A stretch of 64,000 nucleotides of DNA from Alphaproteobacteria bacterium (GCA_009783145.1 WRHR01000002.1:34834-98833); one strand, 5' to 3'. Positions 3,457-49,590 are shown, counted from the first letter of the stretch. Notes: generated by a model not told the origin, from the letters alone. Numbers and translations: made by a program.

Positions 3457-3460
3457 TTTT

Positions 3461-11356: not shown

Positions 11357-11421
11357 AAAAAACCCCTTCCCTATATTCGTTTTATTATATCATAAAAACT
11401 AACTGAGTGAAAGCGTTATCA

Positions 11422-15876: not shown

Positions 15877-15995
15877 TGGTTCTGGCGACGACCTACTCTT
15901 CCGTGGCTTAAGCCAAAGTACCATTGGCGATGCAGGGTTTCCCTGTCTGGTTCGGGATGGAACAGAGGGTGGCTCCCGCTCAATAATCACCAGAA
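15877..15995 (-). rRNA. rrf: 5S ribosomal RNA
   Basis: ...CCAUCCCGAACCAGACAGGGAAACCCUGCAUCGCCAAUGGUACU...GGAAGAGUAGGUCGUCGCCAG; flanked by 16-nt inverted processing arms 15870-15885 / 15989-16004. Confidence 0.85.
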
Positions 15996-16155
15996 CCAAT
16001 TTCTGCGCTTGTCCGCCGTAGCTTTAGCGAAGGCGGAAACATCGTAATTCAAAATATCAAAGAATCCATTCTTTCAACATACTCTTCAAGCATTCTGTTT
16101 GATTTCACGGCGCGCGAGGCGTCATGAAATCAAACAAAGATAAAAAGTCGATCAT

Positions 16156-19027
<2,872 letters not shown>

Positions 19028-19062
19028 TTTATCCAATGCTTGAAGAGTAGGTCGTAACGCGA

Positions 19063-19170
19063 GACGCGAGACACGAAACGCGAAAAAACCAACTGCTTCA
19101 AATTTGGTAAAATAACTTGAATGAGCTATAATCGCACGCGTCACGCATCTCGCGTTTCGCGTCTCGATTT
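19063..19170. repeat. Heptamer-array hairpin in the tRNA-23S spacer: (cgcgaga)x2(cacgaaa)(cgcgaaa) / inverted (tctcgcg)(tttcgcg)(tctcg)
   Basis: cgcgagacgcgagacacgaaacgcgaaaa ... cgtcacgcatctcgcgtttcgcgtctcg. Confidence 0.7.
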
Positions 19171-19603
19171 TCAGCAGTTGTAAGTTGATTCTTGTTCTTT
19201 GAATTGAATTTCATCGCGACGCAACCCGGGCCCTGAAAAAATCATAGATTTTTTTGGGTGGGAATTCGCGACGATACTTCTATTTTCAGAAAGATATTTT
19301 GAGATTATTACGATGTCTATTTAGTAGCTAGAAGCTACTAAACAAACACAAAAACCGATTCACAATATAAAGCAGATTCACATATGCGAACATATGGAAT
19401 CATTGGTAAATTCCGGGTTCGCACCGAGATGCGAACACGGGCTTGTCCGAAGACAAACAATTTACCAATGATTCCAACCTCATCAAAAAATAATACCAAA
19501 CTTGAACAGTCCCCCTTCGCGCTTTGCGCTTCGGGCGACACTCCTTCGCCTTCGCTGCTCGGCTTGGGTGGCTTGCCACCCGAAGCCTCGCAGAGGCGAA
19601 GGG

Positions 19604-19680
19604 TGGTGGGTCAGGAAGAACTCGAATCTTCGACCTCCGCTGTATCAGAGCGGCATTCTAACCAACTGAACTACTGACCC
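19604..19680 (-). tRNA. tRNA-Ile (anticodon GAU), CCA encoded
   Basis: Cloverleaf; anticodon loop CUGAUAC. Confidence 0.85.
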
Positions 19681-19685
19681 AAACT

Positions 19686-19761
19686 TGGTGGAGCCAATCG
19701 GACTCGAACCGACGACATCCACGTTGCAAACGTGGCGCTCTACCAGCTGAGCTATGACCCC
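19686..19761 (-). tRNA. tRNA-Ala (anticodon UGC), CCA encoded
   Basis: GGGGUCAUAGCUCAGCUGGUAGAGCGCCACGUUUGCAACGUGGAUGUCGUCGGUUCGAGUCCGAUUGGCUCCACCA. Confidence 0.9.
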
Positions 19762-19889
19762 GAAACAAACTCTGGGGACAACAATGGTTAAAAATTTGCT
19801 TTGCTGATACCAAAGTTTCTTCATCTTGTAAAGGGATGTTCAGACAGTCGTTTGGATTAATGACACTTCGTGAGAAGTGTTTTATCTAT

Positions 19890-21585
<1,696 letters not shown>

Positions 21586-21939
21586 TTAGAAAACTTGTTT
21601 GTTTGTCCGTGCACTAAACTAAACTGACATTGAATGTTAGTTCGTTTTACTATTTCGCAAGACAAGTATTTTAACGAGGCCACAAAATTTTGTAACCTAC
21701 TACCTGTCTAGGATATGCACTATGACAATTGTCAAAGTTTGGATTTTCCCAAATTCAACTGTCTGCACATCCCTTCTTTTTATGATTTGTATTTTGCAAC
21801 GCAAAACACCCATCATAAATCTTGATGAGCTGCTTTATTCACAATGTTGCGATTTTTCCTGGGACAACGAATCGTGTTGTTTCCATAAAACCGCAGAATT
21901 TCAGGGGTTGAAGCTTTTGTTCCAACTTGAAAGCCCGCA

Positions 21940-23430: not shown

Positions 23431-23520
23431 TGTCGTTCTAGTATACTAGAACGGCAAGTATAAAATAAAATGTCCATTATAACGGACAACGTTCATTATC
23501 GCGTACGACTTATGATTAGG
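23431..23520. repeat. Composite palindromic element: TTCTAGTATACTAGAA + TGTCCATTATAACGGACA + cgacttatgatta (copy 1)
   Basis: Homologous to 52131-52225. Confidence 0.7.
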
Positions 23521-25611: not shown

Positions 25612-25613
25612 TA

Positions 25614-25738
25614 ATTAGCGATTAGCAATTATCAATTAGCGATTAAAAATGCAACAATATGAAATGTCCAATATACTGGACAATGTTATTACCAGTTCCC
25701 CAATTGCTAATCGCTAATTGCTAATCGCTAATTCCTTT
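25614..25738. repeat. Heptamer-array hairpin element, family A (second copy) with central TGTCCAATATACTGGACA
   Basis: ttagcgattagcaattatcaattagcgatt ... ttgctaatcgctaattgctaatcgctaatt; shared gcaacaata flank. Confidence 0.85.
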
Positions 25739-27984
25739 ACTGTTTTCGTCTTCGGGTCGTATACCTTTGGGGTGCCGCGATATCCCATCGTAGAATGATG
25801 GCTGGGGATTAGAAATTCCGGCAGAGGCGTGCTTTCGCCCATACTCCTGAACGCCTGCAGCCGCGGGTCGGAATACGCCGGAGTATAATCCGCTTCGATC
25901 GGCCTGTGGTACCAGCCTTGGAATATTACCAGCTCCTTTTTCGCGTCCAGCTTCAGAATATCCATAGTGCTGTAAAGCGGCTTTCTTTCCGTCGTCGTAG
26001 TGTCTTTTCCGTCCGCGCCCTTGGTCTTTTTCTCCTCCACTTTTTCGCCCATCATATCCGAAAATCTTTTGGCGGTATCGGGGTCATTCTGGCGGAAAAC
26101 GATTTTCGCCGCAGTCGTGGAAATTATGGTTGCCGCCGCGTCCGCGCCGTACTTTTCCTGAATCTGGTGAATATCCTGGCCGATGATAAGATAAGACACT
26201 TTCTGTCCTCGGCCGATATCGGGCCCTTGGATAATCGCCTGCATCTTTTGCATTTTGGGCATTTCGTCCAAGACGAACAAGGCGGGGAACGGCCCGACTT
26301 TTTGACCCTTATGCTCGTCGCCGGGCGCGTTCGCAATCAGAAACTTAGACATAAGCTCGATAAATATTGCCGTTATCGGGTTCAAGGCGTCGGCATCGAC
26401 CTGATTGATGGACAGGTATACCGTAACCGGCTTTATTTTTCCATCGCGCGGGTCGATCATACCGCGCAGATCCGCGAAATGAAAATCACTGTGGCTGGTG
26501 CGATTTCGCACGGCGGCGTTTCGGAAAATCCCCAGCCCCGCCAGAACCGTGGACAGGATGGAGCCGCGCTCCTTGTCCGGGGTATTCGCAATCTGCGTAA
26601 GCTCCAAAACCGCGCGATGGCTGTATCCGTACTGCAGCGCTTCGTTCACCGCGTTCAGGAACAAGTCCTTCATGGGATCGGCCATCATCACCATCTGGTC
26701 GCCTTGCTTGCGGCGGTTTTCTATTTCCTCGGCGATCAGCACCTGATTTTTGTTCAGCCAGTCCAGAATCATGGACAAAGACGCCTCTTTCCCGATCCAA
26801 TCGTCCGGAATCTTCGCCCAAGTCCCGATATGGACATAGTTCATGGCATTCAACTGCCCGTTGGCCAAGGCATGCAGCGCGGCATCCGCATTCGGGTCAT
26901 TCATAAGGGTATAATACTCGCCCAGCAATGCGGCGTCTTCGGAATCGAATTGTCCAGATTGCAGGCGCGCGTAAAAATACTCGTCCGCCTTGACCTTGTC
27001 TATCTTGGAAACCATAAAGTTGATAAGACCCGAAAGCGCCGCGCGGCCGGAAATCGTCCAATGGGGGTCGGCGGTAGAGCTTGTCTTGTCCGCAATAAGC
27101 GTGGAGCATATGGAGTCTATGTAAAGGTCGCGCTCTTCGGCCAGAAACGGCACATGCGAAGGCGATAAAGGGTTCCAGGACGGATAATAAATGCCCGCCG
27201 CCGGATCGTCCTGGCCCGCCCAGTTCATGATAAACACCGGGCCTACTTTCTCCGCGCGATACGCGGACGACTGCTGCTTTAATTCCGGCTTCGGGTCGTT
27301 GATAATCATCGAAACGCCGGTGCAATCAAAGATAGTGGGCAAAACGACGCCTTGGGTTTTACCGGTCCCTGGAGGAGCCAAACATAGGGCGGAAAAAGTC
27401 TCCTTCATCATCAGCGGCTTTTTCTTCCAATAGCCCAGAACCATCATAAAACCGTCAAGCAGGCCCATTTTTTTGACATCTTCGTCATTGGCCTTGCGCG
27501 AGGACTCTTCTTTCAGGGTGTCTTTGCCATGTGGGTTGAACTCTTTAAGCAGGGTATCGTCCGCCAGGATGAAAAACACGGCCAGCGGAAGCAGCGGGGC
27601 AAGCGTCGCAATATCGGTCTGGGTGACGGCTCTCATAAGCCAATCCGGGACTTCGGCCAGCACGGACAAGCCGCCGCTGCGCAGCAGGTTTCCGAAATAT
27701 ACGCTGATCCACTTGGCGGCGGCCGGCGACCAGCCATAGCGCCATATATGCTCGATCGGAAACGCCAGAATAAACGCCAGCGCGCAGGACAGCCAGATAA
27801 TAAGCTTGTACCGCATATTCCAGAACAAGCGCGCCAAGGGCGTCCTTTCGTGGTCCTTGTACACGGACGAGTCGAATATCTTCAGCCCCTTGCCTTTGCC
27901 CGAAAACGATAAAAAGTTGAACTTTTCTGCCATTAGGTTTATTATACCAAAAAAATAGGTAATTGATAATGCAAAACTTGCCAA
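25714..27984 (-). CDS. virD4: Type IV secretion coupling protein VirD4/TraG family
   Basis: Two N-terminal TM segments, Walker A LAPPGTGKTQGVVLPT, Walker B FVLDEMP, 756 aa. Confidence 0.8.
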   Translation of the reverse strand: MASFALSITYFFGIINLMAEKFNFLSFSGKGKGLKIFDSSVYKDHERTPLARLFWNMRYKLIIWLSCALAFILAFPIEHIWRYGWSPAAAKWISVYFGNLLRSGGLSVLAEVPDWLMRAVTQTDIATLAPLLPLAVFFILADDTLLKEFNPHGKDTLKEESSRKANDEDVKKMGLLDGFMMVLGYWKKKPLMMKETFSALCLAPPGTGKTQGVVLPTIFDCTGVSMIINDPKPELKQQSSAYRAEKVGPVFIMNWAGQDDPAAGIYYPSWNPLSPSHVPFLAEERDLYIDSICSTLIADKTSSTADPHWTISGRAALSGLINFMVSKIDKVKADEYFYARLQSGQFDSEDAALLGEYYTLMNDPNADAALHALANGQLNAMNYVHIGTWAKIPDDWIGKEASLSMILDWLNKNQVLIAEEIENRRKQGDQMVMMADPMKDLFLNAVNEALQYGYSHRAVLELTQIANTPDKERGSILSTVLAGLGIFRNAAVRNRTSHSDFHFADLRGMIDPRDGKIKPVTVYLSINQVDADALNPITAIFIELMSKFLIANAPGDEHKGQKVGPFPALFVLDEMPKMQKMQAIIQGPDIGRGQKVSYLIIGQDIHQIQEKYGADAAATIISTTAAKIVFRQNDPDTAKRFSDMMGEKVEEKKTKGADGKDTTTTERKPLYSTMDILKLDAKKELVIFQGWYHRPIEADYTPAYSDPRLQAFRSMGESTPLPEFLIPSHHSTMGYRGTPKVYDPKTKTVKELAISN

Positions 27985-28742
27985 GGATTTTTATTAACGA
28001 GCCTTTGGAATCCGGAAAGCAAATCCCGATTTCCAAAGACCAGCTGCACTACCTGCAGAAAGTAATGCGGACGGAAAAATGTCTGGTTTTCAATGCCGGA
28101 AAAGAATTCAATGCGCAGGTCGCCGGCTCGCAGCTTTCGGTTCTGGATTTGACCGAGCATCCTGACCCGTCCAATAATTTGATCTTTGCATTTGCACCGA
28201 TAAAGCAGTCAAGAATGGAAGAAATGCTGAATGCGGCAACTCAAATGGGCGTGGCGAGGTTACAGCCGGTTATCACAGAGCGCACCACCGAGAGATTTCC
28301 AAAATGGGAAAGAATTAGAAAAATCATAATCGAAGCATCGGAACAATCGGGTCGCAATTCCGTCCCCGAACTCCTGCCGCCGATTAAATTTTCGGAATTC
28401 GTAGGGGCGAATGAAAATTCGCCCGGCAATTTAATTTTCGCAGACGAGCGGTTCGCGCATGAGGTGTTCCCCTCCTGTGGAGGGGTGGATGCGAGCGAAG
28501 TGAGCAGACGGGGTGGTTCTTGTAATATGCGAGAATTAAACGAACCACCCCGCCCTGCGGGCACCCCTCCACAGGAGGGGAACCGCGACCCCACCACCGT
28601 GCTCATTGGCCCCGAAGGAGGATTCTCCCCGGCGGAATTCTCGGCATTGGACGCATCCGATGCAATAGGAATCAGCCTTGGAAAAACAATCCTGCGCGCT
28701 GAAACCGCTGCAATCGCCGCATTGGCGAAAATTATTGATTAA
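27963..28742 (+). CDS. rsmE: 16S rRNA m3U1498 methyltransferase RsmE carrying an in-frame palindromic-element insertion
   Basis: N-terminal PUA-like and C-terminal SPOUT (LIGPEGGFSPAE) blocks; the only housekeeping gene on the plus strand. Confidence 0.75.
   Translation: MIMQNLPRIFINEPLESGKQIPISKDQLHYLQKVMRTEKCLVFNAGKEFNAQVAGSQLSVLDLTEHPDPSNNLIFAFAPIKQSRMEEMLNAATQMGVARLQPVITERTTERFPKWERIRKIIIEASEQSGRNSVPELLPPIKFSEFVGANENSPGNLIFADERFAHEVFPSCGGVDASEVSRRGGSCNMRELNEPPRPAGTPPQEGNRDPTTVLIGPEGGFSPAEFSALDASDAIGISLGKTILRAETAAIAALAKIID
28466..28583. mobile_element. RPE-like palindromic element (GTTCCCCTCCTGTGGAGGGGTGG ... CACCCCTCCACAGGAGGGGAAC) in-frame within rsmE
   Basis: 118-bp nested inverted repeat; copies at 31143-31252 and 35708-35834. 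Confidence 0.85.
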
Positions 28743-28773
28743 TGATTACAAAATAAACGCGGCTATGCCGCGT

Positions 28774-30384
28774 TTATTTTGTCGTTCTTTTTATCCACCA
28801 CATCTGGCCGATTCCGAACAGGTTGGAAACCGTCCAATACAGCACCAGTCCCGCCGGCATCCATGCAAACATCGCGGTAAATATTACAGGCATCCACTTC
28901 ATCATTTTCTGAGTCTGCGCCATCGGGTCGTTGCCCGTAACCTTGTTTGCAGCGGATTGCAGATGCATCTGCCACCACATTGACGCTCCCATTACTATCG
29001 GCAGGATAAAGTAAGGATCCATCACCGCCAAATCCGAAATCCACAAGAACTGCGAATGACGCAGCGGCGCCGCAATCAGCAGCGCTTTATAAAGCGCGAA
29101 GAAAATCGGAATCTGCAAAAGCATGGGCAAACATCCAGACATCGGACTGGTCTTGCTGTCTTTATACAGCTTCATCATCTCCTGTTGCATGCGTACCTTG
29201 TCGTCTGCATACAGCTTTTGAATGCGCTGCATTTCCGGCTGCATTTTCTGCATCGCGGCCATGCCGACAAAAGACTTGCGCGTCAGCGGCCACATCAGGA
29301 TTCTGATAATTATCGTCAGAAGAATAATCGCAACGCCATAGTTCGCCACCAGCGAATACAACGCATTCAGCGCCCAAAGGAACGGACGCGACAGGAACCA
29401 GAACCAGCCGTAATCAAGCGTCTGATCAATGCCGCGGATAGAGGTGGCCGCGGCTTTCAGCACTTCGGGCGTTTTGGGCCCTGCAAAAATTCTTGTTGTG
29501 AAAGTAGTTATCCCGCCGGCCGGCACAGAAACAGCCGACGCGCTTGCTTCGGCCTGCAAGCGCCCGTCTCCCAGCGGTTTTATTTTTATCGTTTGGTCCA
29601 CAGAACCCAGGCTGGCTATGACCTGCCAGTATTGGTCTTCGAATCCGACAAACCCTGCGGGCGTTGTCCAAGCATAAGATTTCTTACCGACGGATTTCCA
29701 GGATTCGCGTTCAATACTGCTGTTTGCAAAAGCAACCCCGCCGGTTGAAACTCCGGCCGTGTCGGCGCCTGCATCGCGCACGATCCGCGCATAAGGAACA
29801 AACGACACATCGCGCTTGGAATTGTTTCTGATAGTGTCGGTGATTGTAATTATGTAATTTTCTTTATCAGAAATTTCTATGGCGCGCGAAAATTCTATCC
29901 CATCGGAGTTTTTCCAAACAATATTCTCGAATCCGGTTCCTACGTTTTTTTGATTCCAGTGCGTAGCGACGTTCGGCGCGGTAGTTCCATTCGCAATCAA
30001 CCCGACTTCTATGAATTCATTTTTCCCGGACAAAATGCCAACGGCTTCTTCGCTATTTTTTGCGGCTTTGTAATTATGCAGGCGAATATCGCTGATGCGA
30101 AGCCCTTGGGCGTTAAAGCCCATTTTCCAACCCATGGTCTCGTGACCGAGCGGAACGACAACAGCATTTGAAACATCTTCGACCTGCGCCGCCGCGACAT
30201 CCGTATTTTGCTCTGCGGGCGCAGGGCTCTGCTTCGGAGACAGCCAAGCGCTGAAAATCCACCAAGCCAGCAGGAATATGACTATCCACCATAAAACTCC
30301 GGTGAATTTCGATTTCTTCGAATTCGCGTCTTTCGCCGCCAGCCAAGAGGAAAACCCTGAATTATTCTCTAAATATTTTACCAT
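28774..30384 (-). CDS. yidC: Membrane protein insertase YidC
   Basis: Large periplasmic domain then 5 conserved TM helices (…FGWGIILLTIIIRIL…); start taken at MVKYLENN. Confidence 0.85.
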   Translation of the reverse strand: MVKYLENNSGFSSWLAAKDANSKKSKFTGVLWWIVIFLLAWWIFSAWLSPKQSPAPAEQNTDVAAAQVEDVSNAVVVPLGHETMGWKMGFNAQGLRISDIRLHNYKAAKNSEEAVGILSGKNEFIEVGLIANGTTAPNVATHWNQKNVGTGFENIVWKNSDGIEFSRAIEISDKENYIITITDTIRNNSKRDVSFVPYARIVRDAGADTAGVSTGGVAFANSSIERESWKSVGKKSYAWTTPAGFVGFEDQYWQVIASLGSVDQTIKIKPLGDGRLQAEASASAVSVPAGGITTFTTRIFAGPKTPEVLKAAATSIRGIDQTLDYGWFWFLSRPFLWALNALYSLVANYGVAIILLTIIIRILMWPLTRKSFVGMAAMQKMQPEMQRIQKLYADDKVRMQQEMMKLYKDSKTSPMSGCLPMLLQIPIFFALYKALLIAAPLRHSQFLWISDLAVMDPYFILPIVMGASMWWQMHLQSAANKVTGNDPMAQTQKMMKWMPVIFTAMFAWMPAGLVLYWTVSNLFGIGQMWWIKRTTK

Positions 30385-30403
30385 TAAAAAACCTTCGGTT
30401 TTT

Positions 30404-30525
30404 AAGTAGGAAGTAGGAGGTAGGAAGTAGGAAATAAAAAGCAACAATAAACGATGTCCATTATAATGGACAACGATTACCTTACTCTATCACTTCCTAC
30501 TTCCTACCTCCTACTTCCTACTTCT
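30404..30525. repeat. Heptamer-array hairpin element, family D: (ggaagta)xn - TGTCCATTATAATGGACA - (tacttcc)xn
   Basis: taagtaggaagtaggaggtaggaagtaggaaat...cttcctacttcctacctcctacttcctacttc; palindrome at 30455-30472. Confidence 0.85.
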
Positions 30526-31062
30526 TGTTATTAACCATCCCAACAGATACGCCGCAACGCCGATGCTGATGCAAATGTCCGCCACATTGAACGCCGGCCA
30601 GTGAAATCCCCTCACGTGAAAATCTAAAAAGTCGATCACCGCGCCAAAGCGGATGCGGTCTATCAGATTCCCCAAGGCCCCGCCGATTATCAGCGACAAT
30701 GCTATGCGCTCGTACTTTTCTTTTGCGCGAGCGAACAGGTGATAAGCCAGAAAGCCTATTATCGCGCCCGTCAGCGCGATTATAACAAACGGCGCCGAGC
30801 TCCCCAGCGCACGGAATAATGAAAAGCTGGTTCCCGGATTCCAGACGAACACGAACTTGAACCAGGATGTCATAGGCAGACTCAGCAAGTCTGCGCCATG
30901 CACGACCATGCCTCCATTGCAAAATGGCGAGTGCAAGTCGCATGCGGCGCCGAACCAATGAAATCCGACCGGAGACATTGTCATAATCCAGCCCTTGGTC
31001 AATTGGTCGAGAACGACCACCAAAAGAATAAAGAATAAAGAATAAAGAATAGATTTCTTCAT
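30511..31062 (-). CDS. lspA: Lipoprotein signal peptidase II
   Basis: 183 aa, 4 TM, conserved Asp blocks; N-terminal MKKSILYSLFFIL coded by an (aagaata) array. Confidence 0.8.
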   Translation of the reverse strand: MKKSILYSLFFILLVVVLDQLTKGWIMTMSPVGFHWFGAACDLHSPFCNGGMVVHGADLLSLPMTSWFKFVFVWNPGTSFSLFRALGSSAPFVIIALTGAIIGFLAYHLFARAKEKYERIALSLIIGGALGNLIDRIRFGAVIDFLDFHVRGFHWPAFNVADICISIGVAAYLLGWLITRSRK

Positions 31063-31142
31063 ATATCAACCTTTTGATTGGGGCATTATAACGGAAAACT
31101 TCTGCAATACAAATGAAATATGGCAGAAGAAGCGGGGTCGCA

Positions 31143-31252
31143 GTTCCCCTCCTGTGGAGGGGTGGCCGCAGGCCGGGGTGGTTCTTGTAATCTGCGAAAA
31201 TTAAACGAACCACCCCGTCGGCTACGCCGACACCCCTCCACAGGAGGGGAAC
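31143..31252. mobile_element. RPE-like palindromic element, intergenic copy
   Basis: cagttcccctcctgtggaggggtgg...ggggtggttcttgtaatctgcgaaaattaaacgaaccacccc...cacccctccacaggaggggaac. Confidence 0.85.
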
Positions 31253-31267
31253 ACCACGGCGCAAATT

Positions 31268-33001
31268 TTAATGATTATGCTTTTCAATTGCGTCGGCCAA
31301 GGCTTTATAATTACTATCCCGCAAGGCGGTCAAAAGGCCGTCTATCTTATTCTTCTGAATCCCCAGCGCGATCAAGACTTCCTGGCCCAGCACAAAGCTG
31401 GATTCTATCGTTTCCGGCAATGCGACCAATGCGCCCTCGGCCCGCAATTCTTCCGATTCCTGCATATTGCGCACGCGCGCAAAGATTTTTACCCGCGGCG
31501 ATGCTAACCTGGCCGCGCGTATAGTCCGCTTCGCTATCGCGGCATTATTCAGCGCCACCACTACCGCGCGCGTGCGCCGTGGCGCAAGGCCCAGTCTTTT
31601 CAGAACAGCCTCGCTGGTCGTATCGCCGTAAAATACGTTAAAGCCCGCCTCGCGCGCAAAAGCCACCGCATCGACATTCGCGTCGATTGCAAGGTACGGA
31701 ATTTTTTGCGCCTCCAGCATCTGCGCGATAGTATGCCCCACGCGTCCGAACCCGCAGATAATTACTTCCGCCTTGATTTCCAGCAGCTTTTCGTTATTTA
31801 TCTTTTCGGCCTGAGCGGGATTGAATAATTTCCCGCGCGAATTCAGCAAGTCATAAACCGCCAGCAATATCGGCGTCACCATCATCGACACGACTATGAT
31901 TGCGGTCAAGACTTCGCCATGTCCGAACGGTATGGCTTGGATATCATTGGTTTTCATAGTCTGCAGAATCAGCAGCCCGAATTCGCCGCCTTGGGCCAGA
32001 ATCAATGCGATAAGGAACGATTCGCGGCTGGAAACATTTCTTACGCGCGCAACTATGTAGATCGCAAAGAACTTGATTACGACCAATGCGATAACGCCCA
32101 GCGCGATAACCCACCAGTTCTGGGCCAGCAGCGGCAAGTCCAGCCCCATGCCCAAAGCGATGAAAAAGAATGACAAGAACAATATCTGATAAGGTTGCAT
32201 GTCCGCCTGAACCTGATGGCGGTATACGGTCTCGGACAGCAGCATTCCGGCAAGGAACGCGCCCATCGCAGGGGGCAGCCCAAAATACCCGAACACCACC
32301 GCCCACAAAACTATGTTCAGCAATATGGCCAAAAGGAAGGCTTCTTTGGATTTGAGTTTTACAACGGCCCTCATCAAAGGATTCAACAGGAACCGGCCGA
32401 CGATGACGACGCCCAGAACAAGACCGGTCGACATAACCAGAATATCGATGACTTCGGCGCCAAGGTTAAACGAACGGCCGGCCAAAATAGGCAGCATCGC
32501 CAGCAAAGGAATAGACAGCAAGTCTTGAAACAGCAATATGGAAAAGGTCTGGCGGCCCATGTTCGACTGCAGCTCGTTTCGATCGGCCAGAACTTGCAAG
32601 TCGCCGGAAGTGCTGGACATAGCCAGCATCAAGGACACCATAACCGTCCCCATTATCGTCCAACTGGTCAGCCCGAAAAGAATAGGGAATATCATCACGG
32701 CAACCATCAGAACCTGCGCGGCGCCGAACCCGAAAATGCTATGGCGCAGTCCCCAAAGGCGCCGCATGTTTATTTCCAACCCTATGACGAACCACAAGAA
32801 TATGATTCCGATCTGCCCCAGGAAAGTCCATATTTCCGAAATCTCCCACAGCTTCAACGCATAAGGCCCGGCAATAACGCCCGCGGCCAGAAACGCCAGC
32901 AAGGTCCCGACGCGGAAAAGGCGCAGCAAGAACACCAGCGCGAACGCAACGCCCAGGAATATGAAAATAGAAGTGCTCATTTTTTCTCTCCGTCCCCGCA
33001 A
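31268..33001 (-). CDS. kefB: CPA2 K+/H+ antiporter with C-terminal TrkA-N (KefB/KefC type)
   Basis: About 12 TM Na_H exchanger domain + Rossmann GFGRVGHTIAQML. Confidence 0.8.
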   Translation of the reverse strand: MRGRREKMSTSIFIFLGVAFALVFLLRLFRVGTLLAFLAAGVIAGPYALKLWEISEIWTFLGQIGIIFLWFVIGLEINMRRLWGLRHSIFGFGAAQVLMVAVMIFPILFGLTSWTIMGTVMVSLMLAMSSTSGDLQVLADRNELQSNMGRQTFSILLFQDLLSIPLLAMLPILAGRSFNLGAEVIDILVMSTGLVLGVVIVGRFLLNPLMRAVVKLKSKEAFLLAILLNIVLWAVVFGYFGLPPAMGAFLAGMLLSETVYRHQVQADMQPYQILFLSFFFIALGMGLDLPLLAQNWWVIALGVIALVVIKFFAIYIVARVRNVSSRESFLIALILAQGGEFGLLILQTMKTNDIQAIPFGHGEVLTAIIVVSMMVTPILLAVYDLLNSRGKLFNPAQAEKINNEKLLEIKAEVIICGFGRVGHTIAQMLEAQKIPYLAIDANVDAVAFAREAGFNVFYGDTTSEAVLKRLGLAPRRTRAVVVALNNAAIAKRTIRAARLASPRVKIFARVRNMQESEELRAEGALVALPETIESSFVLGQEVLIALGIQKNKIDGLLTALRDSNYKALADAIEKHNH

Positions 33002-33004
33002 AAC

Positions 33005-33838
33005 TTATAGCACATTAGCGCGCGCTAGTTCAACAAACTTTTCCATAGGCAATTCTTCCGCGCGCTCTTGCCCGGTTAATCCGAATTGCGACCAATCGAC
33101 GCCGGGCATAATGCTGCGTATCATTTTCCTCCGCTGGCCGAAAAGCTTCGCGGTCAGCTTTTCAACGGATGACAGCTGAATTGTTTTTTTATCTTTCGGG
33201 ATTATCTGCACAACCGCGCTTTGGACTTTCGGCGCGGGGAAAAAAGCGGTATTCGGAATATTGAATAAAATCTTCGCGTCCGCAACCAAAGCGGTAAGAA
33301 CGCTCAGCCGGCCGTATTGCTTATCGCCGACGCGCGCGACGATTCTATCCGCCACTTCGCGCTGGAACATTAAGGTCATAGAGTGGAGAGTGGAGAGTGA
33401 AGAGTGTAGTTGGTGCAGCCACTGAATTAAAAGTTCAGTTCCGATATTATACGGAAGGTTGGAACAAATTGCTAAATCATCTGCACTCTTCACTCTCCAC
33501 TCTTCACTCTTGAAATATTTCAATGCGTCGCCATAAATAACTTCCAGGCGGCCGTCTGCGGCGTTCGAAATTTTTTTCAAAATCAGCCCGGTCGCACGGT
33601 CTTTTTCAATCGCGATAACTCGCGCGGCGCCGCACTCCAGCAAAGCGCGCGTCAGGCCGCCCGGCCCTGGGCCGACTTCGACAACCGTAGCGCCCTGTAT
33701 GCCCGGCACGCTGCGCGCTATTTTCCGCGTGAGGTTCAGATCGAACAGGAAATTCTGGCCCAGCTGCTTTTTGGGTTCCAGGCCCGCATCGCGCATCATT
33801 TCTGCAACTGGGGGAAGATTTAATAATTTTTCATTCAT
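33005..33838 (-). CDS. rsmA: 16S rRNA (A1518/A1519) dimethyltransferase
   Basis: SAM motifs VVEVGPGPGGLT, NLPYNI; contains a 28-bp inverted repeat pair in-frame. Confidence 0.85.
   Translation of the reverse strand: MNEKLLNLPPVAEMMRDAGLEPKKQLGQNFLFDLNLTRKIARSVPGIQGATVVEVGPGPGGLTRALLECGAARVIAIEKDRATGLILKKISNAADGRLEVIYGDALKYFKSEEWRVKSADDLAICSNLPYNIGTELLIQWLHQLHSSLSTLHSMTLMFQREVADRIVARVGDKQYGRLSVLTALVADAKILFNIPNTAFFPAPKVQSAVVQIIPKDKKTIQLSSVEKLTAKLFGQRRKMIRSIMPGVDWSQFGLTGQERAEELPMEKFVELARANVL
33379..33512. repeat. Inverted heptamer arrays (gagtgaa/gagtgga ... cactctt/cactctc) inside the rsmA coding sequence
   Basis: atagagtggagagtggagagtgaagagtgtag and ctgcactcttcactctccactcttcactcttg, 71 bp apart, bracketing the NLPYNI codons. 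Confidence 0.85.
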
Positions 33839-34464
33839 ATCTGCTTTCTGCCGCCGAACGCAATGCTCAGCGTTCCGTCGTCGATGTAATCCAGGTCGCC
33901 GCCCAAAGGCACGCCGGATGCCAGTTCTGTAAATTGTAGGGGCGAAATATTTTTCGCCCCAGGGGCGAATGATAATTCGCCCCTACAAACCTGTGCGACA
34001 TAATGCTGGGTTGTTTTTCCTTCCACCGTATTGGGCAGGGCAAAAATGATTTCGACTATTTTTTCATCATCGATACGCGCGGGCAGACTTGCGATATTCA
34101 AATCTTCGGGAGTGGTTCCCGCGGCGCCGGACAGCAAGCCGCCGATGATATGATAGCGCCCCTTGAACACGCCGGATTTTTCCAAAGTCCAAACATCGCC
34201 CAAATCGCGGACCAGACATAACTGGCCGTTAGCGCGCGCGGGATCGCGGCAGAATTCGCAATTATCACAATCGGTCAAACACCCGCATACGGGACAAGGA
34301 CGTACAGATTCGGCAGTATCATTCAGCGCTGCGGCCAGGGCAGCGGCCCTGCCTGTTTTGTCCTGCAACAGGGCCAAGACTATGCGCTGCGCCGCCCGCC
34401 CTCCGACCCTGGGCAGCTTTGCGAATTGTTTAATAAGCTTTTCGATTTTCTGATTCATCGACAA
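33835..34464 (-). CDS. recR: Recombination protein RecR
   Basis: HhH, C4 zinc finger CPVCGCLTDCDNCEFC, Toprim; carries a 53-bp in-frame double hairpin. Confidence 0.85.
   Translation of the reverse strand: MSMNQKIEKLIKQFAKLPRVGGRAAQRIVLALLQDKTGRAAALAAALNDTAESVRPCPVCGCLTDCDNCEFCRDPARANGQLCLVRDLGDVWTLEKSGVFKGRYHIIGGLLSGAAGTTPEDLNIASLPARIDDEKIVEIIFALPNTVEGKTTQHYVAQVCRGELSFAPGAKNISPLQFTELASGVPLGGDLDYIDDGTLSIAFGGRKQI
33935..33987. repeat. Tandem double hairpin (ggggcgaa-N-ttcgcccc)x2 framed by tgtagg...cctaca, in-frame inside recR
   Basis: tgtaggggcgaaatatttttcgccccaggggcgaatgataattcgcccctaca encodes CRGELSFAPGAKNISPL on minus. Confidence 0.8.
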
Positions 34465-34507
34465 AATATTAGCCTAAACTAACAACATAAATAAAGCACA
34501 AAAAACT

Positions 34508-34538
34508 TTGACAAATCAGTTTTAATCTATGTTATAAT
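34508..34538 (+). promoter_or_regulatory. Candidate sigma-70 promoter TTGACA-N19-(TGt)TATAAT with strong SD aaggaaagga
   Basis: tttgacaaatcagttttaatctatgttataatat 25 nt upstream of the ATG at 34565. Confidence 0.45.
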
Positions 34539-34564
34539 ATCCATAACCAAGGAAAGGATATAAA

Positions 34565-35692
34565 ATGGCGGACACTCAAAAATACCCGAAGTCATTCGAA
34601 GAAGTCTTGAAGATGGCGATGGACAAGAAACCGGAAAAAGGAAGATTTGGCGATTGGGGGGGCTGGCGCATCATGGCAAACGCCGGCAAGGCGGAATTTA
34701 TCGGAACCCCTTGGAGCGAGGGCTTTCCGAAAACACTGGATGATGCCAAACATCTGAGAGTTTGGCACGACAATGAAGAATTTTTCGAAATGTTTATCAA
34801 TGCTGACGCGGATAACTCCGCCGAAGCGAGGGATTTTCTGCAGCGCGCGAATCTTATCGGCGCCGTGCTGGATAATAACTTCAAAAGTCCGGAAAATATG
34901 ATTGTCTTTCTGAAAAACGTGAAATCCCTGACCGACGAGCAGCTGAAATACAATGTGCTGAAACAAGTATCCGACCACAACGATAAAAAAATAAATTATG
35001 ATAAAAATTTGATGCTTGCACAAAGCCCGTTTGTAACGACGAACGACCTGCAGCATGTTTTATGGGTGATTTACGAATATAACGACAGAAAAGACGACCT
35101 GGCGCAGTGGTCGGCGGAACAAAGGGAAATCGCGGCCAAAGTCGCGAATGATTTGCTTGCGCTTGCCGACAAGGAACTGCGCGCGGAACTTGCCAAAGAC
35201 ATTCCGGATACGCAGGTTTTCAAAGACCTTGAAAGAAATTCGGATGCGGCTATCAAGTATTTGCCGGCAGCGCAGGATTACAAAGAAAAACAAAATCTGG
35301 AGAAAGAAATCGCGAAAAAGTTCGATGTGAACCAATTGCTGGGCGACACCGAATATATCGCCAAGTACGACCAAAGCGTCTTGTTGAAAAACGAAGAGCT
35401 GAAAGCGGAAATAGAAAAACTGAATCGCGAAAAAGAGGAAAACGCCGCACAGCAACAGCGCGATTCCAAATATAGAACGGAACTGGAGCAAATGAACGCG
35501 CGATTGCAGGGAGAGATTACCGGGCTAGAAAACCAGCTGTCGGAAGCAAAGAACACTTCCCAAAACACGCAATCGAAATTAGCTAAGCTTCAAGAAGCCG
35601 TGGAAAATACTTCTGCAAAAACATCTTTGAAAACCGGCAGAATCGCAAATTTGCAAAAGATTGTAAAAGAGCAAACCGAACAAAAAAAATAA
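34565..35692 (+). CDS. Hypothetical soluble protein with a long C-terminal coiled coil (K/E/Q-rich)
   Basis: 375 aa, no signal peptide, no recognisable domain; one of the few plus-strand genes. Confidence 0.5.
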   Translation: MADTQKYPKSFEEVLKMAMDKKPEKGRFGDWGGWRIMANAGKAEFIGTPWSEGFPKTLDDAKHLRVWHDNEEFFEMFINADADNSAEARDFLQRANLIGAVLDNNFKSPENMIVFLKNVKSLTDEQLKYNVLKQVSDHNDKKINYDKNLMLAQSPFVTTNDLQHVLWVIYEYNDRKDDLAQWSAEQREIAAKVANDLLALADKELRAELAKDIPDTQVFKDLERNSDAAIKYLPAAQDYKEKQNLEKEIAKKFDVNQLLGDTEYIAKYDQSVLLKNEELKAEIEKLNREKEENAAQQQRDSKYRTELEQMNARLQGEITGLENQLSEAKNTSQNTQSKLAKLQEAVENTSAKTSLKTGRIANLQKIVKEQTEQKK

Positions 35693-35707
35693 TAAAAGCG
35701 GGGTGGT

Positions 35708-35834
35708 GTTCCCCTCCTGTGGAGGGGTCGGCGAAGCCGGGGGTGGTTCGGGTAATGTTCGTATGTTGTGTATAATTTCGTGCATTACATAAACCACCAC
35801 GGCCCTTTGGGCCACCCCTCCACAGGAGGGGAAC
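35708..35834. mobile_element. RPE-like palindromic element, intergenic copy 3
   Basis: gttcccctcctgtggaggggtcgg...ggggtggttcgg...accaccacgg...cacccctccacaggaggggaac. Confidence 0.85.
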
Positions 35835-35863
35835 ACCACCACACGAATTTCAGAATATTTTAA

Positions 35864-36976
35864 TCAATGAAACACAAAGCAATCTATCTGCTGCGTTTTG
35901 GCCGCCTGGCATGCGCTCTGCGCCGCGCTTTCCGACAGGCCGTTCGCACGCACGCGGAACATTCCGCTGGGGGAAGGCTCAACCACCGCTGACAGTCCTG
36001 TAATATTACGAACGCGCGTCACTTGCGATTCTGCGGCCGCCCGTGATCCGAAAGCACCAAATTGAACGCCAGTCCCGCCCGCGTTTTGCACGGGAACAAT
36101 TGCCGCGGGCTTGCTTAACGGCTTCGTTACGGCCACGGGCGGCGGCGCATAATTATTCTGCACCGCAACCGGCGCCGCGCCAGTTCCTAGTATTGTAAAT
36201 CCTTTATCCAGCATCCTTGTCGAAACCGCGGCGCGAATATCCTTGGTTTGCGCGCCCAGAACAACGCTCATCACGCGCCGACCGTCGCGTTTGGCTGTTG
36301 CCACCAGCGAATATTTGGACTTGTTCGTATATCCTGTCTTCATACCGTCGCATCCCGGATACGACGCCAGCAGCCGGTTCCCGTTGGTATAAGTCTGCCC
36401 GTTATAAGTCCAGCTTTGAATCCCGAAATATTTCCAATATTGCGGGAAATGCTTGTAAACCGCCATAGACAGCAATGCGATATCGCGCGCGCTTGACAGG
36501 TGGTCGTCGTCCGGCAATCCGGACGAGTTCTCGAAATTAGTCTTGGAAAGCCCGATTTCCGTCGCGACCTGTGTCATCAATGACGCGAAGTTTCCCTCCT
36601 TTCCACCCTTCAGGTTTTCCGCCAAAACCCGCGCGACATCATTCGCGCTGTGCACCGCGACGGCTTTTATCGCGTCTTCAACCCTTATCTTCGACCCCGC
36701 GGCCAGGCCCAGTTTTACAGGCAAAGCATTCGCCGCGCTTTGCGAAACGATTAAGTGGTCGTCCAGATTAAGACGCTTGTGCTCCAACGCGTCGAATGTC
36801 AGATACAGCGTCATGATTTTCGTAAGAGATGCCGGATAATTCAGGTCGTTCGCGTTCTCGGAATAAAGCACTTTGCCCGTATCCAAGTCCGCGACAAGCA
36901 CGGCGTTATAGTCGGCTGCAAACGCCGATACCGAAAGAATAAAGAATAAAGAATAAAGAATAAAGAATCTCTTCAT
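35864..36976 (-). CDS. dacA: D-alanyl-D-alanine carboxypeptidase (PBP5/6 class) with C-terminal SPOR domain
   Basis: SxxK (ASLTK), SxN (SAND), KTG motifs; C-terminal VQFGAF...SPOR-like; signal peptide MKRFFILYSLFFIL from a repeat arm. Confidence 0.8.
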   Translation of the reverse strand: MKRFFILYSLFFILSVSAFAADYNAVLVADLDTGKVLYSENANDLNYPASLTKIMTLYLTFDALEHKRLNLDDHLIVSQSAANALPVKLGLAAGSKIRVEDAIKAVAVHSANDVARVLAENLKGGKEGNFASLMTQVATEIGLSKTNFENSSGLPDDDHLSSARDIALLSMAVYKHFPQYWKYFGIQSWTYNGQTYTNGNRLLASYPGCDGMKTGYTNKSKYSLVATAKRDGRRVMSVVLGAQTKDIRAAVSTRMLDKGFTILGTGAAPVAVQNNYAPPPVAVTKPLSKPAAIVPVQNAGGTGVQFGAFGSRAAAESQVTRVRNITGLSAVVEPSPSGMFRVRANGLSESAAQSACQAAKTQQIDCFVFH

Positions 36977-37082
36977 AGCATGAAAGAGTACAAAATTTTC
37001 ATATAAAAGGTCAATTAATAAAAGTACCGCGCAACCTAGATTACGCGGCCCTAATTTATTCTTTATTCTCTATTCTTTATTC
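36937..37082. repeat. Heptamer-array hairpin element, family E: (aagaata)x3 - spacer - (tattctt)x3; left arm codes the dacA signal peptide, right arm abuts the pyk stop
   Basis: gaaagaataaagaataaagaataaagaat ... ttattctttattctctattctttattcttta. Confidence 0.8.
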
Positions 37083-37083
37083 T

Positions 37084-38472
37084 TTAATCCAAATCTCTCA
37101 ACGAAATTTTATCCCCTTCGACTATTACCAGCTTTCCGCGCGTGACGCCAAAGCGACGCGCCGCCTCGGACGCGTCCTTTTGTCCGAACATCTGCTCGTT
37201 AAAAATCGGATAGACCCCGCGCGAAAGGCACAACTGATTCGCATCTATCGCATCGTTGCAGACCGCGATTATCGGCATATCGGGTTTCCGACAGGAAACA
37301 GCCGTCGCAATTTCAGTCCCCGCGTCAAACACCACGATCGCCGCGGCTTTGTTCAAATGAGCCATCGACGCGACGCTGCGCGACCAGTCGTTTTCGGGCA
37401 AGTTCTCGATTCGCGTCCAATCCTGTCCGTTCTCATAAACGTCCCCGTCGGCGTTGGTCACGATTTTCGACATAGTATCGATCACGTTTATGGGATTGTC
37501 GCCAATGGTCGTTTCTTCGCTGGTCATAACGCAGTCCGCGCGCAAATAAGACGCCAGCGCGACGTCGGAAATTTCCGCGCGCAAGGGGAACTCGCTGTGA
37601 ACCATGCTGCCCAGCATCTGCGTTGCGACGATGATCGGCTTGTTCATCTTGCGGCACATGCGGATGCTTTCGCGCTGCAGCGCGGGAAGCTTTTCAAAAG
37701 GTATTTCCACGGCCAAATCCCCGCGCGCGAACATAATAGCGTCGGAAATCTGAATGATTTCTTCCAGCCGTTCCAACGCCTGGGGCCGTTCTATTTTCGA
37801 AATGATTTTAATAGGCTGACTGGAACGAGCCGTGATAAAATCGCGGGCCTCGGCCACGTCTTCGGGCCGCTGCACGAAAGAAATCGCAACCCAATCGGGG
37901 TTCTTGGTCAGCGCGTATTCCAAATCCGTACGGTCTTTTGGCGTCAGCACCGAAGTTTCTATATCGGTATCGGGAATATTGAACCCGCGGCGCGACCAGA
38001 TTTCGTCGCCGCGCTTTACTTTTGTCGTCACGGAGCAGAGCCTGGATTCAACCGTGCAATTGTTATTCAGAACTTCCAGCTCTATCTTTCCATCATTCAA
38101 TAAAACGCGGTCGCCGACTTTCAAGGACTTCAAGACATCGTTATCCGGCAGGCAGACGCGGGTTTCATCGCCGCGAGCAGGATTATTGTCCAGAACGAAT
38201 TCCTGACCGACTTTCAAAGGATAGTGGTTTTCGGTTTTAAAGTCGCCTATGCGGTGCTTTGGCCCCTGCAAGTCCGCGATGATCGCAATCGGACGGCCCA
38301 GTTCTTCGGATATCTGTCGTATCAAGTCAATCTTTTGCCCCTGGACATCGCCGGTGTCATGCGAAAAATTCAGGCGGCAGGCATTCACGCCCGCATCAAC
38401 CATCGACTTCAAAGTCTTGTAATCCTGGCTGTTCGGTCCGATGGACGCGATTATTTTAGTGAGTTTGGTCAT
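37084..38472 (-). CDS. pyk: Pyruvate kinase
   Basis: MTKLTKIIASIGP..., conserved K+/Mg sites, 462 aa. Confidence 0.85.
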   Translation of the reverse strand: MTKLTKIIASIGPNSQDYKTLKSMVDAGVNACRLNFSHDTGDVQGQKIDLIRQISEELGRPIAIIADLQGPKHRIGDFKTENHYPLKVGQEFVLDNNPARGDETRVCLPDNDVLKSLKVGDRVLLNDGKIELEVLNNNCTVESRLCSVTTKVKRGDEIWSRRGFNIPDTDIETSVLTPKDRTDLEYALTKNPDWVAISFVQRPEDVAEARDFITARSSQPIKIISKIERPQALERLEEIIQISDAIMFARGDLAVEIPFEKLPALQRESIRMCRKMNKPIIVATQMLGSMVHSEFPLRAEISDVALASYLRADCVMTSEETTIGDNPINVIDTMSKIVTNADGDVYENGQDWTRIENLPENDWSRSVASMAHLNKAAAIVVFDAGTEIATAVSCRKPDMPIIAVCNDAIDANQLCLSRGVYPIFNEQMFGQKDASEAARRFGVTRGKLVIVEGDKISLRDLD

Positions 38473-38802: not shown

Positions 38803-38839
38803 ATCGCTTTCGCGATTTATAAACCGAGAGCAGAGTAGC

Positions 38840-38935
38840 GCGCGCTTCGCGCGCAGAGTAGAAGAGTAGGAGATTATTAGATACTCTCTAACTCTTTTAC
38901 TCTGCGCGCGAAGCGAGCGTTACTCTCTTACTCTT
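38840..38935. repeat. Heptamer/octamer-array hairpin element, family C (copy 2) with GC hairpins gcgcgcgcttcgcgcgc
   Basis: cagagtagaagagtaggag ... tactctctaactcttttactctgcgcgcgaagcgagcgttactctcttactctt. Confidence 0.8.
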
Positions 38936-46312: not shown

Positions 46313-46317
46313 TCCAC

Positions 46318-46438
46318 TACCCCGCCCACTTCGTGGGCACCCCTTCGCCAGCGAATGGGAATTTAGACCGAGCCATGCCGAAGCAAATTCCCCTTCGCTG
46401 GCGAAGGGGTGGCGGCGAAGCCGCCGGGGTAGTGGTTT
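46318..46438. repeat. Nested palindromic element (ccactaccccg...ccccttcgccagcgaa...ttcgctggcgaagggg...cggggtagtgg)
   Basis: Two concentric inverted repeats between the acrB stop and the HAD start. Confidence 0.7.
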
Positions 46439-49466: not shown

Positions 49467-49590
49467 AGGTAGGAGGTAGGAAGTTGGAGGTAGGAGGTAA
49501 GAGAGTAAAAGTTTTTTCTTTTAATTTATAGAATAAATTCTTAATCACCAACTTCCTACCTCCTACTTCCTACTTTCTACTTTTGTCCCT
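49467..49590. repeat. Heptamer-array hairpin element, family D with central ttggtgattaagaatttat core (inverted relative to the 53330-53462 copy)
   Basis: taggtaggaggtaggaagttggaggtaggaggtaagagagtaaaag ... accaacttcctacctcctacttcctactttctac. Confidence 0.8.

Follow-up and report, generated by a model that had tools for sequence, protein, structure and literature searches.

To our knowledge, palindromes translated within protein-coding genes have been treated as a curiosity of Rickettsia, and, with no enzyme known to accompany them, their mode of spread has stayed unexplained; nor do we know of any enzyme for the Rickettsia palindromic elements (RPEs) themselves. The RPE families, RPE-1 to RPE-10 (Ogata et al. 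2000, 2002), have been summarised in PMC10969869. Among other systems, MITEs (miniature transposable elements with inverted repeats) that fuse in frame with genes include ERIC, QMITE1 of Coxiella and MITEs of Anabaena (PMC10969869; PMC5896051; PMC2229807), REPINs are defined as doublets of repetitive extragenic palindromic (REP) sequences (PMC3116915; PMC3337134), and coding palindromes are found in the mitochondria of Nematomorpha (PMC6649704). The clade of Vsr and DUF559 nucleases includes the homing endonuclease I-Bth0305I (PMC3424549; PMC2677866). Here we describe a family of nested palindromes in a stretch of 64,000 nt from an alphaproteobacterium (GCA_009783145.1, WRHR01000002.1:34834-98833; hereafter the 64-kb window), one copy of which lies in frame within rsmE, a gene for a 16S rRNA methyltransferase. 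The three copies in the window are probably miniature, non-autonomous selfish elements of a family of cassettes that encode a DUF559 nuclease, mobilised in trans by that nuclease.

The 20-mer GTTCCCCTCCTGTGGAGGGG has six exact matches in the window, against an expectation of 0.00 from 100 dinucleotide-preserving shuffles, and these form three inverted pairs at the ends of three elements. A preliminary description had placed three nested palindromes of 110-127 bp at 28466-28583, 31143-31252 and 35708-35834, coordinates that can be read directly from the sequence. Copy 1 (28466-28583, 118 nt) is a tail-to-tail doublet in frame in rsmE, composed of a left 20-mer (28466-28485), a degenerate hairpin A (about 28487-28509), a central stem-loop (28510-28551), a hairpin B (28552-28562) and a right 20-mer (28564-28583). 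The other two had been called intergenic, and gene positions bear this out: the 110-nt doublet of copy 2 (31143-31252) lies between lspA (30511-31062, minus strand) and a kefB-like gene (31268-33001, minus), while the 127-nt doublet of copy 3 (35708-35834), with a longer centre unlike those of copies 1 and 2, lies between the convergent genes at 34565-35692 (plus) and 35864-36976 (minus, dacA-like). A fourth, related element (46314-46435), a head-to-head doublet of the variant unit AATTCCCCTTCGCTGGCGAAGGGG-T-GGCGGCGAAGCCGCC-GGGGTAGTGG, occupies the gap separating two minus-strand genes.

On either strand, copies 1-3 fold into an outer stem of 20-21 bp that closes a junction of three hairpins. 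Predicted free energies (dG) lie between -78 and -85 kcal/mol, and z-scores relative to shuffled sequences between -8.3 and -11.7, on either strand (dG -78.7 and z -10.1 for copy 1; dG -82.7/-84.6 for copy 2 and -81/-78 for copy 3), and the fourth element reaches dG -90.6 and z -11.5. An alignment of both strands of copies 1-3 reveals invariant ends and an invariant inner inverted repeat, GGGGTGGTTC ... GAACCACCCC, along with two short segments that are different in each copy. The centres of copies 1 and 2 are 95% identical, and the same centre is present in four loci from other genomes (L004, L018, L056 and L073; see below), which speaks for the miniature having itself been propagated, as opposed to decaying independently at each site. 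No target-site duplication is evident, as the flanks of copies 1-3 and of the copies in rsmE and queA genes discussed below are not direct repeats; the AA...TT at the element edges merely lengthens the palindrome.

All of these elements are inverted doublets, tail-to-tail in copies 1-3, of a unit of ~43 nt, in which a conserved hairpin is followed by a hypervariable, covarying hairpin and a GGGGTGGT box. The unit can be written 5'-(AA)GTT-CCCCTCC-NNN-GGAGGGG-T-(variable GC hairpin, GNA-type loop)-GGGGTGGT-3'. Its spread was followed by scanning one genome per species for the 20-mer, which gave at least 108 stretches, and the 8-kb loci around these matches form the material for what follows. 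The 108 listed loci and the window together hold 136 units, mostly single, with 11 tail-to-tail doublets; the common single-unit form in the loci is (AA)GTT-CCCCTCC-TGT-GGAGGGG-T-(hairpin)-GGGGTGGT(C/T)TT. The variable hairpin takes 65 distinct sequences in 94 units, and 83% of these pair perfectly over 4 bp or more, a feat managed by 14% of shuffles. In 22 units of equal length both sides have changed at three of five pairs, with 93.6% of cells paired versus ~50% with slid partners, and this degree of covariation was reached by 0 of 500 shuffles. Read inward from each unit's own end, the loops of this hairpin are GAA (30), GCA (12), GAAC and AAC (6 each) and TTC (1), a bias that is strand-specific for each end and symmetric for the element as a whole. 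C-GNA-G loops are a hallmark of exceptionally stable DNA mini-hairpins, and loops of the GNA type would fit a single-stranded or extruded DNA intermediate.

Most of the matches listed come from metagenome-assembled genomes (MAGs) of gut, rumen and termite Alphaproteobacteria, including Candidatus Enterousia, in keeping with the earlier suggestion that the host is not Rickettsia. The best relatives among them are 65-73% identical to the window in DNA, the window's own genome not being one of those listed. There is also one Cyanobacteriota MAG, and three Bacteroidota matches were judged sound: Th196P3bin14, where one host protein carries a sorting domain of the type IX secretion system, a 3.55-Mb Breznakibacter contig and a Prolixibacteraceae MAG. 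MAG labels can err, and the 'Muribaculaceae' contigs L056 and L073 encode alphaproteobacterial-like proteins and are possibly mis-binned, so the presence in Bacteroidota rests on those three genomes. Long open reading frames (ORFs) run through units or doublets in MutS, Der/EngA, Nth, MnmE, QueA, an M48 peptidase and a type ISP restriction-modification enzyme, all in frame. Collections of plasmids and phages gave no match to the element (blastn in distant mode), and viral contigs yielded 0 matches to the exact 20-mer and 28 stretches with a looser unit pattern, one of them a full DUF559 element.

The elements match no known RNA family: Rfam searches of the whole window and of loci L154, L093 and L121 at gathering thresholds, and of 28300-36000 at E <= 1, returned rRNA and tRNA only, apart from sub-threshold, miRNA-like matches to long hairpins. 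Several established classes of structured repeat were considered and rejected. The order of the GTT and AAC ends is reversed relative to integron attC sites, the regular spacers of CRISPR repeats are absent, as are the splicing motifs of inteins, and there is no conserved unpaired core of the kind found in ribozymes.

The link from these palindromes to a candidate enzyme is DUF559 (PF04480), a Vsr-like PD-(D/E)XK endonuclease domain found inside several of the ORFs that cross units. Three queA genes illustrate the arrangement. One (L093) contains two in-frame DUF559 insertions, in another (L108) site 1 is filled and site 2 holds a solo unit only, and in the third (L034) site 1 holds two units and site 2 is empty; site 2 is thereby seen in full, solo-unit and empty states. 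The DUF559 ORF, ~115 codons long in full-length elements, has a unit on its left and another, inverted, on its right, in elements of 435 nt (L093a), 441 nt (L093b) and 442 nt (L108). The left arm of copy 2 is identical to the left end of the L108 element at 41 of 43 positions, a GCCCGCAGGGC hairpin is common to the right arm of copy 1 and the left end of L093a, and the doublets of the window have an AT-rich centre of 22-50 nt at the place where a DUF559 ORF would be.

Though the loci had been fetched solely for the 20-mer, 8 of the 108 listed contain DUF559, in 9 copies, most of them flanked by units on both sides; the Bacteroidota copies are 57-63% identical to the alphaproteobacterial ones. 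DUF559 was also the top recurring family in a Pfam census of the 134 ORFs within 350 nt of units, and those ORFs produced no other recurrent nuclease or mobility family; neither they nor a clustering of flanking ORFs produced a transposase. Between the two DUF559 copies of a single queA the nonsynonymous divergence (dN) is 0.108 and the synonymous divergence (dS) is saturated, for a ratio of ~0.03, which indicates that the embedded nuclease is kept by purifying selection.

One whole insert, used as a database query, matched 1088 homologs; most of the best 120 are free-standing, 125-220 aa long, and they represent many phyla. Translated units open many of these 120 (...NSPPLEGWQAQPDGVV) and close them (...NHPALTGTPPQEGN or HPSTGGE), and the signature of the C-side unit is present in 70 of them. 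Unit-bearing homologs include those of Desulfuromonas, Trichlorobacter and Oscillospiraceae, and the DNA of one unrelated locus, L121, shows units beside the DUF559 gene. A free-standing full element was found on an IMG/VR viral contig (L154), with an ATG directly after the left box and an ORF that continues through the right unit. An exhaustive search of representative proteins with RsmE also uncovered a distant, 487-aa RsmE (P0360) from an alphaproteobacterium of 65% GC, with the domain order PUA-Methyltrans_RNA-DUF559-Methyltrans_RNA, in which DUF559 and GC-rich hairpin modules occupy the same loop as copy 1. The nearest solved structure to DUF559 is 3HRL, whose function is not assigned. 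Shared ends, a common architecture and like kinds of insertion site support the view that copies 1-3 are miniature derivatives, or at least members, of the DUF559-cassette family.

DUF559 recurs in or beside restriction-modification genes. In Bacteroidota it lies inside ORFs for a type ISP enzyme and an MmeI-like methyltransferase (L036 1298-5266; L076 2-2014), and at 2501-2926 of loci L120-L127 it separates hsdM from the genes downstream in a type I system found conserved in many samples. This proximity could reflect a role in defence or a preferred landing zone. At L121, a cluster of ~450 nt (2926-3387) with at least six units of alternating orientation lies 3' of a free-standing DUF559 gene and recalls the arrays of bacterial interspersed mosaic elements (BIMEs) of E. 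coli.

The gene that carries copy 1, rsmE (27969-28742, plus strand), encodes the 16S rRNA m3U1498 methyltransferase, a SPOUT-fold protein; its ORF can be read from a TTG at 27963, whereas orthologs start at the Met of MQNLPRIF, at 27969. The ORF at 27963-28742 matches PF04452 of Pfam (E 6.2e-38), and RsmE sequences from the PDB align to its product as two blocks with the insert between them. Copy 1 supplies the third base of a Val codon and 39 further codons (FPSCGG...PPQEGN), placing the peptide FPSCGGVDASEVSRRGGSCNMRELNEPPRPAGTPPQEGN between FADERFAH and LIGPEGG; across the element the protein reads FAHEVFPSCGGV...PPQEGNRDPT. There is no stop and no frameshift, and every invariant RsmE residue is kept in an alignment with the closest 120 homologs, which served as the ortholog set. 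In 107 of the 120, 16-29 residues (mode 18-19) separate (F/L)(A/G)DE(R/K) from (I/V)GP(E/A)GG, as against 51 in the window protein; the loop is enlarged in the other 13. An identical RsmE segment is present in an independent JGI metagenome assembly (P0001), so copy 1 is not an assembly artefact.

The preliminary description had put copy 1 in the rsmE frame between conserved blocks, as is the case, and had credited it with about 40 added residues; the element does contribute 39 codons, but the net gain of the loop over typical orthologs is ~32 aa. The ortholog alignment shows the expected gain in length at this very site, in a variable loop that is modelled as disordered, and the reading frame of the lengthened gene is unbroken. 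In an AlphaFold2 model built from the 120-sequence alignment the mean pLDDT (predicted local distance difference test) is 88.4 and the core exceeds 90, while residues ~167-210 score 54-64 and lack secondary structure. This stretch runs from the strand-helix at 157-166 to the strand at 212-215, which leads into the GPEGG loop, and copy 1 is accordingly modelled as a disordered loop on an intact RsmE fold. It most likely persists because it is in frame, is free of stops and sits in the one RsmE loop that tolerates changes in length.

A further proposal, that every copy yields a similar peptide in one frame, holds only in part: copy 2 starts with FPSCGGV as predicted but ends in HPSTGGEH, its 110 nt being 2 mod 3, and in copy 3 stops interrupt all three plus-strand frames, only the minus strand being open. 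In the doublets 2.2 of 6 frames are open, compared with 1.7 in shuffles. Because the doublets are not notably open in all frames, the in-frame copies look like survivors of selection rather than products of design.

Comparison with relatives adds empty sites to the filled ones. A termite-gut contig (L113) is syntenic with the window over virD4-rsmE-...-yidC-lspA-kefB-rsmA-recR-orf-dacA and is empty at all three copy sites. Its RsmE loop between the motifs is encoded by 90 nt, versus 186 nt in the window, and the sites of copies 2 and 3 hold short intergenic hairpins, that at the copy 3 site being the canonical terminator AAACCGCCCTTGGGCGGTTTTTT. The rsmE insert itself is found at one position in five species, namely the window and P0002, P0003, P0004 and P0012 (DNA in L109-L112). 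The interiors of the latter four inserts are strongly diverged yet homologous to that of the window, and the terminal hairpins are still self-complementary with differing stems (CCCCTCC/GGAGGGG, CCCCTCTG/CAGAGGGG and CCCCTCTA/TAGAGGGG). A single ancestral insertion in rsmE was considered and rejected, as filled and empty orthologs are interleaved in a neighbour-joining tree of 202 gap-free RsmE columns. The interleaving implies either repeated gain or repeated loss, between which a single-gene tree discriminates weakly.

The same loop has received other insertions. In another clade of gut Alphaproteobacteria it holds a palindrome of unrelated sequence (L114 3001-3834; L115 132-938), with an outer stem TGTGTCATCCCGG...CCGGGATGACACA and three inner hairpins, the same four-way architecture as in copies 1-3; its product contains ...VIPGRGNAASPG... 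and ...FRDD. All told, the RsmE loop has been hit by at least three different types of element. A GATCCCGG..CCGGGATGAC motif also adjoins units at L078 and L086. Beyond the loop, rsmE of the window has its own intrinsic terminator (28748-28782). The window (28742-28774) lacks a YfbR-like HD-domain gene that L113 (5094-5754) has between rsmE and yidC; in the window a strong terminator directly after rsmE is followed by the end of yidC.

The chief competitor to an origin of copies 1-3 within the DUF559-cassette family is the proposition that the palindromic doublets came first, whether as selfish or as host-generated sequences, and spread by other means, DUF559 having invaded the doublet centre secondarily, much as homing endonuclease genes invade introns and inteins; the window copies would then be unoccupied hosts and would not have arisen by deletion. 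Doublets and solo units indeed far outnumber DUF559, with its 9 copies in 108 listed loci, the mini form exists in several copies with one particular centre, and a homing activity is proven for one member of the clade, I-Bth0305I (PMC3424549; PMC2677866). Against this, some solo units retain the last DUF559 codons beside the box (GGGGTGGTTAGAGAGCCAGAGAAAAA), which suggests that full elements were truncated. Moreover, the free-standing DUF559 ORF crosses the right unit to form the C-terminal tail in 58% of the best 120 homologs, so ORF and unit appear tightly integrated, and no enzyme besides DUF559 recurs beside units. On balance we judge secondary invasion unlikely, and the remaining accounts are each less well supported. 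There is a slim chance that the elements are classical REPs or REPINs mobilised by a single-copy RAYT (REP-associated tyrosine transposase, an HUH Y1 enzyme) encoded outside the sequences examined. A short palindromic unit that has a conserved 5' tail and is found both singly and as inverted doublets would suit such a system, as would the mostly intergenic location, the lack of target-site duplications and the hairpin-forming ends. RAYT genes are normally flanked by their REPs, however, and phmmer (E <= 10) found no homolog of E. coli RayT among ORFs of at least 60 aa in the window and ~115 loci (~0.9 Mb), nor is Y1_Tnp among the recurrent families of the 134 unit-adjacent ORFs. The 5' tail is GTTC rather than GTAG, and an exact 20-mer common to several phyla is unlike the lineage-specific, vertically inherited REPINs.

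It is comparably improbable that the elements are structures of benefit to the host (terminators, stabilisers of mRNA 3' ends or RNase III sites) that are kept by selection and not by selfish spread. Copies 2 and 3 do lie exactly at the places of terminator-type hairpins in the empty relative L113, and their structures are very stable, with pairing maintained by compensatory changes. Yet no T-run follows the elements, a terminator scan does not call them, they have no Rfam family, and copies in the coding regions of RsmE, MutS, Der, Nth and others cannot be terminators. The loop bias, too, is symmetric per end and not per transcript, and both the association with a nuclease ORF and the spread across phyla fit mobile DNA better. 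The least credible account, to which we give very little weight, makes rsmE with copy 1 a dying pseudogene, or has the insert removed before the protein is made in the manner of an intron or intein. A structure of -79 kcal/mol within an mRNA lends it some plausibility, and a perfect stem of 20 bp could be a substrate for RNase III. But the ORF is intact with all invariant RsmE residues present, the insert is in frame in five species despite heavy internal divergence, and it has neither intein boundary residues nor a match to an intron family nor a ribozyme-like unpaired core.

If the copies are indeed miniatures of the DUF559-cassette family, a DUF559 nuclease from a gene at some other place in the genome would mobilise the doublets in trans, or would have done so in the past. 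Its substrate would be the ends that form hairpins, probably in a single-stranded or extruded state, and insertion would take place next to hairpin-prone DNA such as terminators or GPEGG codons. Within genes only stop-free, in-frame copies in tolerant loops would survive, and translation of copy 1 would simply give RsmE, still functional, a disordered loop of 39 aa rich in Gly and Pro; between genes, copies may happen to take the place of terminator or stabiliser hairpins. By analogy, the doublets would relate to the DUF559 cassette as MITEs do to an insertion sequence, or REPINs to a RAYT.

That said, a number of observations count against this reading. The role of DUF559 as the mobilising enzyme is deduced from association, and the domain has no demonstrated transposase or homing activity, 3HRL being likewise without an assigned function. 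There is no DUF559 gene within the 64-kb window, and a trans-acting copy in the genome has to be assumed. A metagenome scan for rsmE-unit junctions gave the P0002 and P0003 contigs only, and thus no rsmE gene with DUF559 in close relatives. One DUF559 gene (P0186) is seen in many samples at one fixed place in a type I restriction-modification operon, and resembles a resident gene more closely than one that is actively mobile. The symmetric GNA loop bias fits neither a single transcribed strand nor single-strand transposition of the IS200 type. Depletion of stop codons, as if by design for coding, is not convincing at 2.2 versus 1.7 open frames of 6, and the presence/absence pattern relative to L113 could in principle reflect deletion and not insertion.

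The window has further palindromes and repeats. An rrn operon, which the preliminary description had noted to be linked, is indeed so (16S-tRNA-tRNA-23S-5S, 15880-21586), and its 16S gene (19890-21586, minus) spans 1697 nt for a model of 1533 nt. The excess includes ~160 nt of nested hairpins at 21355-21515, just after GCAAGTCGAACGG in the helix-6 region, with 7/8-nt repeats of the AGAGTAA type and a GCGCGCTTCGCGCGC hairpin; it looks like an intervening sequence, and a related palindrome occurs at 38821-38927. More than 35 arrays of 7-nt tandem repeats, with 4-8 copies each, are scattered over the window, mostly as inverted pairs that make long intergenic hairpins; examples are those at 112-236, 1037-1116, 11421-11507, 25613-25733, 30404-30524, 36934-37086, 49467-49582, 52750-52864, 53334-53463, 59262-59336 and 60585-60672. 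The heptamer varies from pair to pair (AATTAGC, AAGTAGG, GATTTAC, AAAGAAT and others), and one family combines a conserved core, TGTCCATTATAATGGACA, with copy-specific heptamer arms (155-192, 23457-23494, 25651-25688, 30441-30478 and 52158-52195). These arrays are a second class of palindromic element in the window.

Heptamer arms are also found in rsmA/ksgA (33005-33838, minus), where inverted arms of AGAGTGG and TCTTCAC at 33380-33419 and 33471-33510, 85% complementary and in frame, flank the conserved NLPYNIG motif and add 6 and 4 residues relative to the L113 ortholog. This makes rsmA a second rRNA methyltransferase gene with translated palindrome arms. A gene for the four-helix-bundle family 23S_rRNA_IVP (PF05635; E 5e-31) lies at about 3130-3465 on the minus strand, within a stop-to-stop ORF at 2635-3465, and is flanked by heptamer/octamer arrays at 2534-2633 and 3460-3490. 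It has homologs in four of the fetched loci and may be another small selfish cassette.

Searches of the literature by DNA 17-mer, by encoded peptides and by DUF559, which covered open full text with subscription journals outside their scope, turned up no description of the elements. The chance that units and DUF559 together represent a new class of selfish element is substantial. A fuller formulation, which we offer tentatively as a possibility short of an even bet, is that hairpin units and DUF559 make up an undescribed, cross-phylum selfish class in which a Vsr-like nuclease recognises hairpin ends and drives both the cassette and REPIN-like miniatures, living in frame and unspliced, as neither intron nor intein, in the essential genes rsmE, queA, mutS, der, nth and mnmE. 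If so, protein-coding palindromes of the RPE type would gain in DUF559 their first candidate enzyme, and the system would be a second, non-HUH solution to the REP/RAYT lifestyle. RPE-like behaviour is in any event seen here in two phyla or more, among free-living bacteria of the gut and of termites, and ends that are shared with an ORF for a conserved nuclease under purifying selection make the mechanism directly testable. For annotation, a single mobile family would account for DUF559 'very-short-patch-repair endonuclease' calls, for the odd N- and C-terminal peptides (SPPLEGW..., ...TPPQEGN) and for enlarged loops or domain insertions in RsmE, QueA, MutS and others. Such genes also offer natural experiments in the tolerance of essential enzymes for inserts, whether unstructured or folded.

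How, then, do these elements compare with the systems described previously? Like homing-endonuclease insertions (inteins, group I introns and the Vsr-like I-Bth0305I; PMC2677866, PMC3424549), they place a nuclease ORF in conserved genes at recurrent sites, and a given site (queA site 2; the rsmE loop) can be full, degenerate or empty. They differ in that the same ends appear at many unrelated sites, more as in transposition, and that RNA or protein splicing plays no part, the insert staying in the host protein; the Cys/Ser ... His-Asn residues of inteins are not at the insert boundaries, and Rfam gave no intron or ribozyme match. With MITEs they have in common that they are non-autonomous miniatures, occasionally in frame in genes, whose ~43-nt ends recur in longer, ORF-bearing DUF559 elements (435-442 nt). 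Unlike MITEs, they lack target-site duplications, their parent lacks a DDE or other known transposase, and their ends are long structured hairpin modules, not simple inverted repeats.

Mobile GC-rich palindromic clusters exist in yeast mitochondria, and these, along with the palindromes of Nematomorpha mitochondria, show a similar tolerance of hairpin-forming sequence within protein-coding DNA, though they are organellar, unrelated in sequence and devoid of an associated nuclease ORF. The resemblance to REPs, BIMEs and REPINs with their RAYTs is closer: a short palindromic unit, its 5' tail conserved, is found alone, in inverted doublets and in local clusters (L121), target-site duplications are absent, and the associated nuclease gene is flanked by inverted units. 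Here, however, that gene encodes a PD-(D/E)XK DUF559 nuclease in place of an HUH Y1 transposase, the unit combines a hypervariable hairpin with a second one and has a 5' tail of (AA)GTTC instead of GTAG, many copies are intragenic and translated where the REPIN-RAYT criterion is extragenic, and the family crosses phyla where REPINs are lineage-specific.

As for RPEs, with which the preliminary description had drawn the parallel, the likeness in behaviour is upheld by a multi-copy nested palindrome with one copy in frame in the variable loop of a conserved gene, two intergenic, and L113 empty at all three sites. Both groups comprise multi-copy palindromes of 100-150 bp that form stable hairpins and are found between genes as well as in frame in unrelated housekeeping genes, where the added peptide does not destroy the fold. 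Compared with the RPE families by description, Rfam including no model for them, the elements belong to no recognisable one of them, as had been suspected, and appear instead to be another sequence family, spread across phyla and present in a non-Rickettsia host with a linked rrn operon. They also differ from RPEs in being inverted doublets of a unit that is found alone as well, and in having full-length relatives that carry a DUF559 endonuclease ORF. The palindromes of the window are therefore best compared to RPEs in function, as the same phenomenon in a different host range and apparently a different sequence family (the RPEs again being taken by description), and to REPs, REPINs and BIMEs in structure.

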